The notes under the pieces are model-generated. The model was not told where the DNA came from. It searched no databases and saw nothing but the letters and a program-made list of their open reading frames with translations. A stretch of DNA of 64,000 nucleotides from Ostreococcus lucimarinus (lineage: Eukaryota): the NCBI GenBank assembly GCA_000092065.1, contig CP000597.1; one strand, written 5' to 3'. Shown piece by piece: positions 31,205 to 36,379 of this stretch; the first letter of the stretch is position 1, and each line of letters opens with the position of its first letter. Position numbers and translations under genes: made by a program.

Positions 31205-31606
31205 CTATTGATCATCTGCGGCCGACGCGGGCGCGGGCGTGGCGTTCGTCATGTTGTCCACTCGCGTGCGAAACGCGCCTCGTCCGATCGCAAAGCGCCG
31301 TGGCGTCCAGCGCAAGACGTTGGTATCGCCCGGAGCGTCCAAAATGTCGTCGATTCCGTTCGACGCGTCCTCGATGACGTGTCGAAGTGTGCGATGCAGC
31401 CCATCTTCGACGCTGATTTCGTCCAGAACGGCTCGTTCGGCGTCGGTCAACTTCGTCAGTCGGTCGCGCACTGCCTCGGCATGGTCTGGTTTGGTCAACA
31501 GGGCGTTCTCGCGACGGCGCCGGGCCTCGCCAGCTTCCCACGCCATGGCGAGGTCCACGGGATCGCCGTCATCGACGTAGGCATCGTAAGCGTCGGTTTG
31601 CTCCAT
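31205..31606 (-). CDS. Hypothetical small acidic protein.
   Basis: 133-aa ORF with balanced, non-R/A composition (D, E, L, T, W). The opposite-strand ORF 31190..31699 is R/G-rich junk. No recognised domain. Confidence 0.35.
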   Translation of the reverse strand: MEQTDAYDAYVDDGDPVDLAMAWEAGEARRRRENALLTKPDHAEAVRDRLTKLTDAERAVLDEISVEDGLHRTLRHVIEDASNGIDDILDAPGDTNVLRWTPRRFAIGRGAFRTRVDNMTNATPAPASAADDQ

Positions 31607-31717: not shown

Positions 31718-33565
31718 CTAATCATCCTTCTCGCACTGTTCGAACAGCAAATCGTGGTTCTGGCACACGCTTCGCGGACAAAGCGCGAAAACGGAGGACG
31801 CGCCGCGCACGCTTCGCGTGGCGCACATGCGACACGACGATTTCCCGATGGCGATGCACCCGGCGTAGTCCACGTCGATGTGGCCGAATGTGCGGCAGTA
31901 ACGCTCGGTATATTGAAATATCCCTCGCTTGGCATCTTCGAGGTTGGGCAGGCAGTTTTCGTCTTCGACGTTGACCGTCGGCGTGACTCCAAGGGTGGGT
32001 TTCGCGCGAACGGTGGGCGCCGTGTCGGCGGTGTCTTCGTCGTCGGCGTTGCCATCCTCCGCATCGCTTTCGTCGTCGTCACTCTTTGCCTTCGCTGGTT
32101 TGGGATCGCAACCCTCAACGCTGTACGCGCTGCACACGTGATGAGAGCATCGCGAATACGAACTGCTCTGCGTCGCGGCCGGGGAGTCGTCGAGGTAACA
32201 ACTTTGACAACCTTCGCTCGATTTTTCGACGCACCCGAGGACATCGCCGGAATCTTCCATGCAAGCCTTGTTGTATTGTCTATAAATACCGTGCTTAGAC
32301 TCAATTTGCACGGGTGCACACGATGGCGTGGCCTTGACGTCGTCATCTTCCTCCTCCTCCTCGTCTTCTTCGTCTTTGATGGACGGCGTGACGCCGAGCG
32401 ACGCCTCCGATGGCTTCGACTTTTTGCTAGACTTCTTACGCTTTGTCGACTTTTTCTCGTCGGTGTCATCCGTGTCGTCGACGACTGCATCATCAACGTC
32501 GACATCGACGTCGTCGTCTGCGTCGAGGTCATCGTTCTCATCCTCTTCATCCTTCGTGGTTGAAGACTTTTTCTTCAAAGCTGATTTTGTCTTTGACGTC
32601 TTCGACGAGGATTCCTCGGTTTCGTCGGCGACGTCGTCTACACTGCTCGTGCCCGCGGTCACGCGTTTCAAGCTTCCTTTTAAGCCTTTCAAAATCTTAT
32701 CCGTCGTCGCTTTTAACGGTTGAAGCGTGGGATCAGCCGTCGTAAGCGTCCCCGCGCCACCTCTGATTTCCATCGTTCTCGGCGATGCGGCGCTCGAGTA
32801 AAGCACGGCGCCGACGCCACACGCGACGACGGCGGAGACCGCGACGACGGTGTACGTGACGACGTGACTCTTAATCCCGAAAAACGACCGCCGAACCTTG
32901 CGCTTGCGACCGCCATCTAGCAATGAAGCAGTCTCGCTCTCCTCGCGAGCGCGCTCGCGGTCGCGCTTCGCCTCGCGCTTGGCTTCCTTCTTGGCCAACT
33001 TTTCCGCCTTTCGGCGCGCGCGTTCCGCCTCCAAAGCGCGCCGCTCTTCTTCGCGTTTCTTTCGCGCGCGCTCTTCCTCGCGCCTCGTCAAATCAGCCTG
33101 AGAAACGAACCCGAATCCTTCCTCTTCGTCCCCGCCTCGTCGTCTCGCGCTTCGCGCCCGCTCCAACCCGCTCGCGAACTCATCGTCATCGCTCTCATCG
33201 CTGTCGACCCCGCCCAAGCGCTCGGCGACGAGTTTCGACGTCTTACGCATCCTTCGCCTCCGTTCGCTGTCTCTACCGAACGTGCTGTGCGACGGCGACT
33301 CGTCCCCGTCGCTCGCGCCGTCGCCGCCCGCGCGATCCCACGCGCTTCGTCGCCCCCCCCCTCCGCGCCCGTCCCCCCCGCCCGCCTCCACGTCCTCGTC
33401 GCGATCCCTCGCGAACGCATCGTCGTCGTGATCGTCGACGACGCGCGTCTCCTCGTCGCTCTCCGACGCCGTCGTCGCCGTTCGGCGCGCGTCTTCGTCG
33501 TCCGAGCTCTCGCGCGAGCGCACCGACCGCGCGTCGCTCGACGCGTTCTTCGCGCAGCACACCAT
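31718..33565 (-). CDS. Type II single-pass membrane protein. It has an acidic/charged cytoplasmic N-terminus with a coiled coil, one TM helix, and an ectodomain with K/S/D-rich linkers and two Cys-rich repeats.
   Basis: TM helix VVTYTVVAVSAVVACGVGAVLY. Cys-rich repeat 1: ...CAPVQIESKHGIYRQYNKACMEDSGDVLGCVEKSSEGCQSCY...CSHHVCSAYSVEGCD. Repeat 2: ...CLPNLEDAKRGIFQYTERYCRTFGHIDVDYAGCIAIGKSSCRMCA...CPRSVCQNHDLLFEQC. Coding-like composition throughout. No family recognised. Confidence 0.5.
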   Translation of the reverse strand: MVCCAKNASSDARSVRSRESSDDEDARRTATTASESDEETRVVDDHDDDAFARDRDEDVEAGGGDGRGGGGRRSAWDRAGGDGASDGDESPSHSTFGRDSERRRRMRKTSKLVAERLGGVDSDESDDDEFASGLERARSARRRGGDEEEGFGFVSQADLTRREEERARKKREEERRALEAERARRKAEKLAKKEAKREAKRDRERAREESETASLLDGGRKRKVRRSFFGIKSHVVTYTVVAVSAVVACGVGAVLYSSAASPRTMEIRGGAGTLTTADPTLQPLKATTDKILKGLKGSLKRVTAGTSSVDDVADETEESSSKTSKTKSALKKKSSTTKDEEDENDDLDADDDVDVDVDDAVVDDTDDTDEKKSTKRKKSSKKSKPSEASLGVTPSIKDEEDEEEEEDDDVKATPSCAPVQIESKHGIYRQYNKACMEDSGDVLGCVEKSSEGCQSCYLDDSPAATQSSSYSRCSHHVCSAYSVEGCDPKPAKAKSDDDESDAEDGNADDEDTADTAPTVRAKPTLGVTPTVNVEDENCLPNLEDAKRGIFQYTERYCRTFGHIDVDYAGCIAIGKSSCRMCATRSVRGASSVFALCPRSVCQNHDLLFEQCEKDD

Positions 33566-33900
33566 GCGCGCGCGATCGGGACGCGTTCGCGCGCGCGTCC
33601 TCGTCGCTCGCCGATCGTCGTCGCGCGCGCGCGAGCGCGTCGGGGTGTTACGCGTTCCTCACGCCGGCTGGGTGTTACGCGTGCCTCACGAGGACTCTGA
33701 CGAGTCATGACTCAAGCGTAAATAATACACGTATGGACACTTGAATACGTTGGACATGTGGATATGAATCGACATACGAAACAAAAACAATCCGTTCCCG
33801 CGTTGACGGGTGAAGTGAAGATTAAATACTGTACCGTCCACGGCGTTTGAGGTTTCGGGCGGGCGCGGCGCGACTGCGGACGACGAACGACGCCGCGCGC

Positions 33901-33941
33901 GACGACGACGACGACGACGACGACGCGCGACGACCGCGTCG

Positions 33942-33975
<34 letters not shown>
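33901..33975. repeat. Inverted trinucleotide repeat (GAC)8 - GCGCGACGACCGCGTCG - (GTC)11, a potential hairpin/cruciform.
   Basis: Directly visible: gacgac x8 followed by its reverse complement gtcgtc x11 around a short GC spacer. It lies in intergenic DNA between 33565 and 34887. Confidence 0.85.
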
Positions 33976-33976
<1 letters not shown>

Positions 33977-34886
33977 GGGACGCGCGCGCGCGTCGCCGTC
34001 CGTCGCGCGCGCGCATCCCTCGACGCGCGCGACGACGGCCGACGCCCGACGCGCGCGCGCGCGTCGCTTGACGGAAACGACCGCGCCGACGGAAACGACG
34101 CTTCGTTCGAATTCAAACGCGCACGCGCGCCGCGCGCGCGCGACGTCGAGATTTTTCCTCGAGTGCGGACCCGCGGCGCGAAAAAAGCGCGACGCGCGGG
34201 AACCGCGGCGAAAAAGATTAATTTCCGCGTCAGCACCCGCGGCGACCCCGCGCGCGCGGCGCGCGCCCGCGATCGCGACGTTTTTCGTATATAGATGCAT
34301 CACGGGGTTCAATGCGTACACGCGCGTGGGTAAATATGTCGACACGCGTGTCGCCGCGATCGCGGGCGCGCGCCGCGCGGCGAAAATTTATCGCATTTAT
34401 CGCTCGCGCGCGGAGTCACGACTCGCCGACGCGCGAATCCCGCGAAATCCCGCGCGGGGGTGGATAATATCTTCCCGTAGTGCGTCGCGTCGATCGCCCA
34501 TGAGGGCTGTGAAAAAAACCCGCGCGCGAGATTTCGATTTTCACGAACGGTTCATGGTGTTCGTGCGCGCGCGAATGCGTGATCGCCGCGCGTCCGGCGT
34601 GGGTTCGGACGTTCGGGCGATACGAACGGACGTCCGGCGCGTGGCCCGGAGACGACGCCCGACGCGCGCGTGCGCCCGGCGCGCGTTACGCGGGGCGCGC
34701 GCGCGCGGCCGCACACGCGCGCGCACGCCGGGCGCACGCGAGCGACGCGCGCGGTTCGCGGTCGATCGATTCGAACGTCGCTCGATCGATCGACGCGCGC
34801 GCGAGACGCCGACCCGCGACGCCGACCCGACCCGCGACGTCGTTGTTAACGTCGCCGCGATCGATCGGCGTCGCGCGACGCGGGCG

Positions 34887-36379
34887 ATGATGGCGACGCC
34901 GCGCGAGCTCGACGCGCCGAGCGCGGGCTCGCCCGCGCGCGACGACGGCGCGAAAGATTTTCGTCGAACCGAATCCGTCGACGGCGAGGCCATCGCGCGC
35001 GAGCGCGCGCACTCGTTCAGCACGCAGTGCTCGTCGCAGACGACGATCGCGGACTTGGGCCAGGGGCGCGACGACGACGACGACCGCGTCGAGGACGAAC
35101 GCGTCGCGTTCGACGTCGCGCGCGATCGCGACGCGCGCGCGATCGACGAACGGGCGGAGAGAGAAACGCGCGATGCGATGGTAGCGCTCGCGCGCGCGCG
35201 CGCGGACGCGATCGGGCCGGACGGCGCGGATTTATGCGCCGACGTCGCGCGCGAGCTCCTGCGGCGCGAGCGCGCGGATCACGGGGCGTTCGTGTTGGAC
35301 GGCGCGACGGCGCATCACGCGGCGTACCGGGCGCAGTTGGTGGAGTGGATTTTGGACGTGTGCGCGGGGGAGCGGTACGGGCCGACGACGGCGGACGTCG
35401 CGATCGGATACATGGTGCGTGGACGATGCGATGCGACGCGATCAACTGTCTCGCCTCCTGGCTGGCTGATTCCGGGGGAGGGGGCCAGGGGCGATCTTGA
35501 TCTTATCTTCGCCGCGACCGACCGCGATGTTCGGACGAACGGCGAAAAAAATAAAACGTCGGAAACGATTCGAAACGCACGAACGCGCGCGATGGGGACG
35601 ATGGCGAACGATTGAACGAACGACTGACGACGAACGCGGACGCGACGAATGCGCAGGATCGAGTGTTGTCGAAAACCGTGGTGCCGAAGACGTCTTTACA
35701 TCTCGTCGCGCTGTGCTGCTTGCAGATTGCGGTGAAATACGAAGAGATTGAGGAACGTGTGCCGACGATGGCGAAACTTCGCGCGTGGACGTCGAACATG
35801 TACTCGCCGGATATCATTCAAAAGATGGAGTTGGCGGTGTTGATCGAGCTCAAATGGGAGCTCGGCATTCTGACGCCGGCGCACTTTTTGGAATCTTTCT
35901 TGACCATGATGAACGGTGGGACGACGAGCGAGGACGAAGTGGACGTCGGTGTGTGGACGCCGCAGTATCAAGAGGAGTTGAGACATTTGGTGTGTCAAAT
36001 GTACTCGTTGTGCGTGCAAGACGTGAGCTTGGCCAACGAGCTGCCGTCGCGCGTCGCCGCCGCCGTCATCGCAGCGTCGAGGTTGAACTTGGGCATCAAG
36101 CCCTTGTGTCCACCGACGCTCCGAGTTGCGGCGAACGTGACACCGCAGCAAATCTATCCTCTCGTGACGCACATGCACAGAATGTGGGAAGAAGCGTACG
36201 AAGACGACGAGACGACGATGATGGAAGCCGACGTCAAGGCCCACGCGGATTTCAACTCGCTCGCCATCGCCATTCCGCAACAAGAAGGTGTGGTGTATGC
36301 CGATAAACCCGGGTTCGAGCAGCGCATCACTGAAAACGCATCGCCGACGTGTCCGTTGGATATGCAGTGGGACGAATGA
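34887..36379 (+). CDS. Cyclin (A/B/D-type cyclin box). Two exons, 34887..35414 and 35657..36379. Start is uncertain.
   Basis: Exon 1 ends ...YRAQLVEWILDVCAGERYGPTTADVAIGYM (cyclin-box helix 1-2). Exon 2 begins DRVLSKTVVPKTSLHLVALCCLQIAVKYEEIEERVPTMAKLRAWTSNMYSPDIIQKMELAVLIELKWELGILTPAHFLESF (helices 3-5, KYEEI motif). The ORF track splits the gene into ORFs 34068..35615 and 35612..36379. Confidence 0.7.
35415..35656 (+). other. Spliceosomal intron (GTGCGT...GCGCAG, phase 0) in the cyclin gene.
   Basis: Donor GTGCGT lies directly after ATG (M, 35412-35414). Acceptor ...aatgcgcag|GAT CGA GTG TTG (DRVL). Splicing joins ...AIGYM to DRVLSK..., reconstituting a continuous cyclin box. Confidence 0.7.

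Follow-up and report, generated by a model that had tools for sequence, protein, structure and literature searches.

A predicted receptor-like type II membrane protein of Ostreococcus lucimarinus with two copies of an undescribed cysteine-rich module

We characterized an unnamed membrane-protein gene in a 64,000-nucleotide stretch of Ostreococcus lucimarinus DNA (GenBank assembly GCA_000092065.1, contig CP000597.1), referred to below as the window. The gene is a complete single-exon coding sequence (positions 31718..33565, on the minus strand, as are all of its features given below) that runs from ATG to TAG and specifies 615 amino acids plus stop. Its product matches, residue for residue, XP_001422254.1 (ABP00571.1; UniProt A4S9Z0) from strain CCE9901, a model that was already annotated, without a name, under the database title "predicted protein." The match marks the window as nuclear DNA of O. 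lucimarinus. What we add is that this entry appears to be a receptor-like single-pass membrane protein built on a cysteine-rich module that is undescribed and lineage restricted. Its architecture, internal duplication, conservation, restricted distribution, and motif statistics were read directly from the sequences. We found no paper for the accessions of this protein or of its O. tauri fragment, and a keyword search of the literature returned nothing specific. An earlier sequence-only reading of the same DNA had described a candidate novel surface or secretory-pathway protein, a description that topology signs, conservation, and the lack of a curated domain now support; all strings that it quoted occur in the 615-residue protein.

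We propose that the gene product is a type II membrane protein that crosses the membrane once and belongs to the secretory and endosomal system. Its C-terminal part of 358 residues would be lumenal or extracellular and consist of a long, acidic, Ser/Thr/Lys-rich, disordered stalk with two modules of about 75 residues, each probably held by four disulfides, as judged from sequence. The polyanionic stalk would hold the two disulfide-rich heads away from the membrane, and the modules, especially module 2, would be the working head, most likely binding a conserved partner. The cytosolic tail of 234 residues carries an ETASLL signal of the adaptor protein (AP) clathrin-adaptor type, acidic Ser-rich clusters, and consensus sites for basic kinases. 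This tail, which may be regulated by phosphorylation and is probably S-acylated at a Cys-Cys pair, would direct AP-dependent sorting of a receptor-like cargo shuttled by AP complexes between the trans-Golgi network, the plasma membrane, and the endosome or vacuole. We hold the architecture alone to be highly probable and give AP sorting, as predicted from the motif, roughly an even chance. The whole account of a receptor-like type II protein with AP-dependent sorting is tentative, its chances falling a little short of even. Still bolder, and in our view doubtful, is the proposition that the module, in outline C-x9-G-x8-C ... GC ... CxxC ... C-x3-VC ... C, is an undescribed disulfide-rich fold defining a Mamiellales-restricted, AP-sorted family of type II surface receptors with three paralogous groups.

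Ostreococcus and related algae are wall-less primary producers that abound in the sea and have greatly reduced cells. To our knowledge, Ostreococcus has no scales, so that the scale-fraction part of the proteomics proposed in the sequence-only reading does not apply, and we are aware of little information on surface display or membrane-protein sorting in these algae. A lineage-restricted family that combines a conserved adaptor signal with a new extracellular module would supply candidates for surface recognition, including prasinovirus attachment, and for studies of post-Golgi sorting, together with a new database domain entry. If the bolder proposition is true, the family would be a first handle on how the smallest free-living eukaryotes carry out receptor-mediated endocytosis or recognize, for example, viruses, gametes, or particles at the cell surface. 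The finding, which overturns no expectations, is solid and offers testable handles on picoeukaryote sorting and surface biology; the function proposed here is putative.

Relatives and family groups

We searched 1.84 billion representative proteins exhaustively by HMMER with a profile of the ectodomain (cutoff, E ≤ 1e-3) and recovered only 29 clusters of relatives. An initial homolog search had yielded 21 unnamed proteins, and further word-index searches, run with alignments, added almost no relatives. Each full-length relative has one hydrophobic segment and, unless cut short, two modules. Most of the 29 clusters are unlabeled metagenome sequences, for which genus labels based on GC (guanine plus cytosine) content are indirect; relatives with a taxon label or diagnostic context come from Ostreococcus, Mantoniella, Micromonas-like contigs, and a Bathycoccus-like contig. 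By these labels and contexts, the few relatives that can be placed are Mamiellales or Mamiellales-like. No relative of the module protein was found in the viral structure library or the viral contigs that we searched, and there is thus no sign of a prasinovirus copy.

The 29 clusters sort into three groups (a, b, and c). Group a consists of orthologs with long tails. We aligned 14 orthologs of the Ostreococcus clade, which are 40 to 56% identical to the window protein from the M-x-C-C start through the C terminus and retain 16/16 cysteines, except for P0013, in which module 1 is cut short. Group a also includes P0030, from a 65%-GC contig, which we treated as a Micromonas-like positional ortholog despite an E value of only 1.6e-13. 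Public gene models of the family are unreliable. The P0013 entry (784 amino acids) is a broken model that appears to be falsely extended at the N terminus and frameshifted within module 1, and OUS45104.1, the sole named O. tauri entry of the ortholog cluster, is a 192-amino-acid fragment, while metagenome open reading frames (ORFs) of this cluster have 582 amino acids.

In group b, a short tail leads into the membrane segment, after which come an extensin-like stretch of poly-proline with SPPPP and then two adjacent modules. The genes of this group adjoin PsaK, and one of the clusters includes a Mantoniella antarctica MMETSP transcript. Two group b paralogs, P0039 (contig L003, 5001-6299) and P0031 (contig L007, 8001-9176), combine the poly-proline stalk with a C-terminal tail rich in His, Lys, and Asp; on both contigs a PsaK gene and a glycosyltransferase-like gene adjoin the paralog, which marks these two as a separate conserved locus. 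In group c, the tail is short and the two modules have CRFC...WPxCPxxVC, and one of the contigs of this group (47.6% GC) is Bathycoccus-like. The group c gene for P0047 lies two genes from a hydroxyproline O-arabinosyltransferase (HPAT) gene (L005, 2480-3946 and 5295-6371), a relation of adjacency only.

Membrane topology and the eight-cysteine modules

The sole hydrophobic segment, a predicted transmembrane or signal-anchor segment, spans amino acids 235 to 257 (32795..32863). Its Kyte-Doolittle score over residues 233 to 261 is 2.05, compared with 0.67 for the next best window in the protein, and a single such segment was present in 16/16 family members that we checked. We found no signal peptide: the N terminus, MVCCAKNASSDARSVRSRESSDDED, is hydrophilic, and there is no hydrophobic window before residue 228. 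The 15 residues before the segment contain 7 K/R and 0 D/E, and those after it contain 2 K/R and 1 D/E. Orthologs of the Ostreococcus clade have the same clear positive-inside bias, and most other full-length members lean toward a basic N-terminal side, with P0049 as an exception. A hydrophilic N terminus followed by one hydrophobic segment with a basic N-terminal flank leads to type II insertion. The one segment, its basic flank, and the absence of a signal peptide thus predict an N-in/C-out topology. Paralogs replace the stalk with SPPPP-type poly-proline, a feature of the secretory pathway that fits a type II arrangement with noncytosolic modules. The single helix and the type II orientation of the sequence-only reading are thus borne out as predictions, and the 615-residue protein fits a single-pass type II membrane protein.

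Between the membrane and the modules lies a low-complexity stalk rich in Asp, Lys, Ser, Thr, and Glu (amino acids 258 to 411; 32333..32794), with a net charge of -17 and no cysteine. It includes a conserved juxtamembrane ADPTLQPLKATTD and ends with an invariant E-A-x-L-G motif (amino acids 387 to 391; 32393-32407), and its mean pairwise identity among orthologs is 27% overall. The two modules are separated by an acidic linker of 43 residues (amino acids 491 to 533; 31967..32095; 22% mean pairwise identity) with a second motif, x-T-L-G-V-T-P. As a side observation, an [A/S/T]-x-L-G motif precedes the modules (EASLG in the stalk; PTLGVTP at amino acids 522 to 528, approximately 31985-32005), with SLGVTPS and TLGVTPT as the copies of the window protein. 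In groups a and c it stands 5 to 26 residues before module 1 and often before module 2 too. It may mark a site of processing or shedding, or else extend the module at its N terminus.

Module 1 occupies amino acids 412 to 490 (32096..32332), with cysteines at 416, 435, 445, 453, 456, 473, 478, and 486, and module 2 occupies amino acids 534 to 615 (31721..31966), with cysteines at 538, 557, 570, 578, 581, 596, 601, and 611. The two repeats of about eight cysteines that had been noticed earlier therefore have exactly eight each, and profile comparison shows them to be homologous. With Ostreococcus-only profiles, hhalign matched module 1 to module 2 at 56% probability (E = 1e-4), and with family-wide profiles it did so at 98.4% probability (E = 6.2e-15 over 70 columns). 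This family-wide match indicates that the duplication is real and older than the split of the three groups. A single-module hidden Markov model matched both copies in each member not cut short; no further copy was found within the 64-kb window.

In an alignment of 43 nonredundant module instances, nine positions are invariant (C1, Gly, C2, C3, C4, C5, C6, Val, and C7), and C8, which no instance lacks, is displaced by two residues from one module type to another. Written out, the pattern is C-x9-G-x8-C-x(6-20)-C-x(5-10)-C-x2-C-x(13-30)-C-x3-V-C-x(6-8)-C. C2 and C3 were jointly lost in module 1 of P0030, P0037, and P0038, a loss that suggests a disulfide pair, not a metal site, and that leads us to predict a C2-C3 disulfide. 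Conservation within the protein is highest in module 2, which has a mean pairwise identity of 78% and a minimum of 67%, against 22 to 27% in the stalk and linker. This module contains long invariant polar runs, such as CLPNLEDAKRG. This conservation goes beyond the needs of a scaffold and points to a conserved binding surface. Among 14 near-identical environmental variants of the protein, 14 alignment columns differ, 1 of them in a module.

The claim that no known domain is present held up in all sequence-based comparisons. Searched with the whole protein, Pfam-A 2025 returned no family at E ≤ 10; scans of ten distant relatives and the 43 isolated modules returned nothing above threshold and nothing consistent. 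Matches in NCBIfam 20.0 were low-complexity noise far below threshold, and PDB sequence profiles had no significant match to the module. Judged by these searches, the eight-cysteine module is undescribed and belongs to no curated domain family.

A structural model of the repeats, another check that had been proposed, succeeded in part. AlphaFold2 modeled module 2 from the 43-sequence alignment with a predicted local distance difference test score (pLDDT) of 81.3 and a predicted template modeling score (pTM) of 0.65, as a small alpha/beta domain (helix 9-13, strand 16-20, helix 22-25, strand 45-49, a two-residue strand at 61-62, and helix 65-70). The model of the whole ectodomain, built from 9 sequences, was unusable (pLDDT = 34.5). 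Foldseek searches with the module 2 model returned nothing at E ≤ 0.001 against the PDB (no TM-score of >0.2) or against the viral structure library (no TM-score of >0.3). The fold may be new, tentatively so for a medium-confidence model of a small domain.

The cytosolic tail

The tail (amino acids 1 to 234) is highly charged (57 K/R and 59 D/E) and has no cysteines other than C3 and C4. A conserved block of 87 residues (amino acids 71 to 157; 33095..33355) has a mean pairwise identity of 62% among orthologs, versus 25% for residues 1 to 70. It contains RRSAWDRA, SP(T/S)HSTFGRDSERRRRMRKTS, LGG, the acidic Ser cluster DSDESDDDEF (amino acids 121 to 130), and EE-GFGFVS, and it holds the stretch SPxHSTFGRDSERRRRMRKTS. 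The tail has R-x-x-S/T and S-x-x-D/E consensus sites. After the block comes a charged helical segment rich in Glu, Arg, and Lys (amino acids 158 to 210; 32936..33094), with 15 Arg, 14 Glu, 9 Ala, and 8 Lys among 53 residues. This is the KR/E stretch that the sequence-only reading had labeled a coiled coil, a label that did not survive: there is no heptad register with a hydrophobic core, and even the best register has strong hydrophobics at only 13% of a/d positions. With 74% of its residues charged, the stretch has the makeup of a single alpha-helix of the ER/K type, not that of a coiled coil. The helix is restricted to the Ostreococcus clade, and Micromonas-like orthologs are without it.

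Two further features of the tail were absent from the sequence-only reading. The first is an acidic dileucine motif of the form [DE]xxxL[LI], E211-T-A-S-L-L216 (32918..32935), which lies 19 residues ahead of the hydrophobic segment and is followed by a basic cluster. Within it, the E, the T, the S, and the two L residues are invariant in a 15-sequence ortholog alignment. The motif form is present in 20/21 full-length family tails, each with a shuffle probability of 0.006 to 0.27. These 21 tails (36 to 295 amino acids) are otherwise unalignable, and some of them have no leucines besides the two of the motif. Its occurrence in 20/21 tails over about eight divergent lineages is far beyond chance expectation. 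AP adaptor complexes act at the trans-Golgi network, the plasma membrane, and endosomes. Their sigma subunits read [DE]xxxL[LI], including in plants, where the cargo VIT1 is sorted with AP-1 and NRAMP3/4 with AP-4 via dileucine motifs (PMC8905187). VIT1, NRAMP3/4, and INT1 are green-lineage proteins that, like the window protein, have [D/E]xxxL[L/I] in a cytosolic N-terminal region. They are, however, polytopic transporters, whereas the window protein is a predicted single-pass protein with a large lumenal domain for which AP binding is only predicted.

The second feature is the N-terminal pair Cys3-Cys4 (M-x-C-C, then a basic residue; 33554..33559), a candidate site of dual S-acylation. The pair is kept at or near the start of the Ostreococcus-clade orthologs and appears as FACCSRR in the Micromonas-like positional orthologs. 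A Cys-Cys pair beside basic residues at the N terminus, of which GAP-43 is an example, is a classic site of S-acylation, and Cys3-Cys4 of the window protein is probably acylated, judging by this resemblance. What the protein shares with the GAP-43-type site is M-x-C-C with basic residues after it, a feature that is kept from genus to genus; unlike GAP-43, it already spans the membrane, and acylation there is putative.

The closest functional analogy may be to type II endocytic receptors such as CD74 (invariant chain) and DC-SIGN (CD209), a likeness that we draw from general knowledge. These are also single-pass N-in/C-out proteins. Their cytosolic N-terminal tail has a dileucine motif and acidic clusters, and their disulfide-bonded binding domains are displayed C-terminally on a stalk. 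In contrast, there is no relationship in sequence or fold, the head of the window protein is neither a C-type lectin domain nor any other curated domain, and its 234-residue tail is far longer.

Competing interpretations and genomic context

Several points weigh against a receptor-like, AP-sorted protein. The distance of the dileucine motif from the membrane ranges from 19 to 100 residues, varying by member, and P0038 has ETTPLF in its place. No sequon for N-glycosylation occurs in the ectodomain of the window protein. Our look-up for transcript-like contigs of the window gene returned metagenomic genomic contigs only and no transcript evidence. The structural model was built on just 43 sequences. 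Localization, topology, disulfides, AP binding, acylation, and any ligand are all predictions, and the sequence gives no clue to the ligand. The case is built on sequence alone, and a mundane structural role is possible.

One such role is that of a static surface coat or matrix protein. A glycocalyx-like layer around the naked cell would then be formed or cross-linked by stalk and modules, with the tail motifs used for delivery only. The long, polyanionic, Ser/Thr-rich stalk would suit this role, as would the paralogs with extensin-like poly-proline stalks and C-terminal tails rich in His, Asp, and Lys, which resemble green-algal hydroxyproline-rich glycoproteins. In algal wall proteins, rods with Cys-rich heads are a typical design. 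Pherophorins and sexual agglutinins likewise join a stalk to Cys-rich heads, and four group b proteins (P0031, P0033, P0034, and P0039) have SPPPP-type poly-proline repeats. Unlike these proteins, the window protein is predicted to be membrane anchored, and its stalk is acidic and Ser/Thr/Lys rich without poly-proline: Ser-Pro(3-5) repeats are absent from the protein, and the stalk has 5 Pro in 154 residues. No Pfam family, pherophorin included, was above threshold in the family members that we scanned. The dileucine motif, the Cys-Cys pair, and the 87-residue block of the cytosolic tail are strongly conserved, beyond what a passive anchor needs, and long invariant stretches of module 2 surface (LPNLEDAKRG) suggest a specific partner. 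We consider a static coat unlikely on balance.

A role in metal binding is more improbable still. The modules could be zinc-finger-like CxxC...CxxxxC domains, or a metal sensor or scavenger acting through Cys, His, and acidic residues; each has a CxxC and a CxxxxC pair. There were weak matches to the piggyBac CRD (E = 0.18) and to C5HCH, PHD_NSD, and zf-C2HC5 (E = 0.04 to 0.25), and histidines are conserved in the Ostreococcus orthologs (HG, CSHHVC, and HDLL), with His-rich acidic tails in paralogs. However, all zinc-finger matches are insignificant and scattered over different families, and the histidines are not conserved family-wide. The loss of C2 and C3 as a pair would be expected of a disulfide and not of a four-ligand site, and the predicted topology places the modules in the oxidizing lumen or outside the cell.

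We also considered, and rejected, the idea that the modules are divergent kringle or fibronectin type II domains, which are small, disulfide-rich, extracellular modules as well. The Ostreococcus-only profile of module 2 matched the three fibronectin type II repeats of MMP-9 (1l6j) at E = 0.007, with similar spacing of YSxC ... WC ... FCP, but the match was not reproduced with the family-wide profile. Pfam gave no match, Foldseek found no kringle-like fold, and the cysteine pattern differs, which leaves this origin very little credence.

Lastly, wrong-frame long ORFs are common in GC-rich genomes, and several overlap 31718..33565, but a spurious ORF is refuted here by conservation, since orthologs are conserved at the protein level with invariant cysteines, and its probability is negligible. 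GC at codon positions 1, 2, and 3 of the ORF is 0.61, 0.49, and 0.72 (window GC, 64%), and an excess of GC at position 3 over positions 1 and 2 is the pattern expected for a true frame. Relatives also occur in a transcriptome-derived entry (MMETSP Mantoniella) and under the source label merc, which we took as a metatranscriptome catalogue. At least 23 contigs from marine metagenomes and sequencing runs encode this same 615-residue protein. The ORF is a real, conserved gene with orthologs and with synteny; neither a lack of conservation nor assignment to a well-known domain family, which the sequence-only reading had named as refuting, was found.

The gene neighborhood is itself conserved. In the window, the order is an NmrA-like gene, a 133-amino-acid ORF, the membrane-protein gene, and then a divergently transcribed cyclin gene. 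A related Ostreococcus-clade contig of 176 kb has the order cyclin, membrane-protein ortholog, Vta1, and NmrA, and at the P0030 locus, on its 65%-GC Micromonas-like contig, the ortholog is followed by Vta1, NmrA, and a PRC-domain gene. The order cyclin, membrane-protein gene, and then NmrA-like gene is kept, with Vta1 in the intervening slot of the relatives. The ORF in this slot of the window (31205-31606, minus strand, between the membrane-protein and NmrA-like genes) is unchanged in metagenome contigs and has no Pfam match. We rejected it as a Vta1 counterpart because it has no similarity to Vta1 of the related loci L001 (Ostreococcus clade) and L008 (Micromonas-like). The cyclin gene (34068-36379, plus strand) is seemingly split over two ORFs or frames. 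Its Cyclin_N and Cyclin_C matches are confined to 35612-36379, and 34068-35615 has no Pfam match; the split appearance could reflect an intron or a long, unconserved N-terminal region.

The region upstream of the membrane-protein gene contains two kinds of repeats. Just upstream of the start codon (approximately 33640-33690) are two copies of a 17-nucleotide direct repeat, GAGG(C/A)ACGCGTAACACCC, and a third ACGCGT lies about 20 nucleotides before the ATG. ACGCGT is the hexamer of the MluI cell-cycle box, and its copies may be due to chance in a 64%-GC genome. Farther upstream, at 33900-33975, (GAC)n faces (GTC)n in an inverted trinucleotide repeat with arms of up to 33 nucleotides at 94% complementarity (26 nucleotides at 100%). 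This repeat lies about 340 to 410 nucleotides upstream of the ATG, in the divergent region that the membrane-protein gene shares with the cyclin gene. Many metagenome contigs with the identical gene stop 335 to 445 nucleotides upstream of the ATG, suggesting that the inverted repeat probably breaks assemblies.

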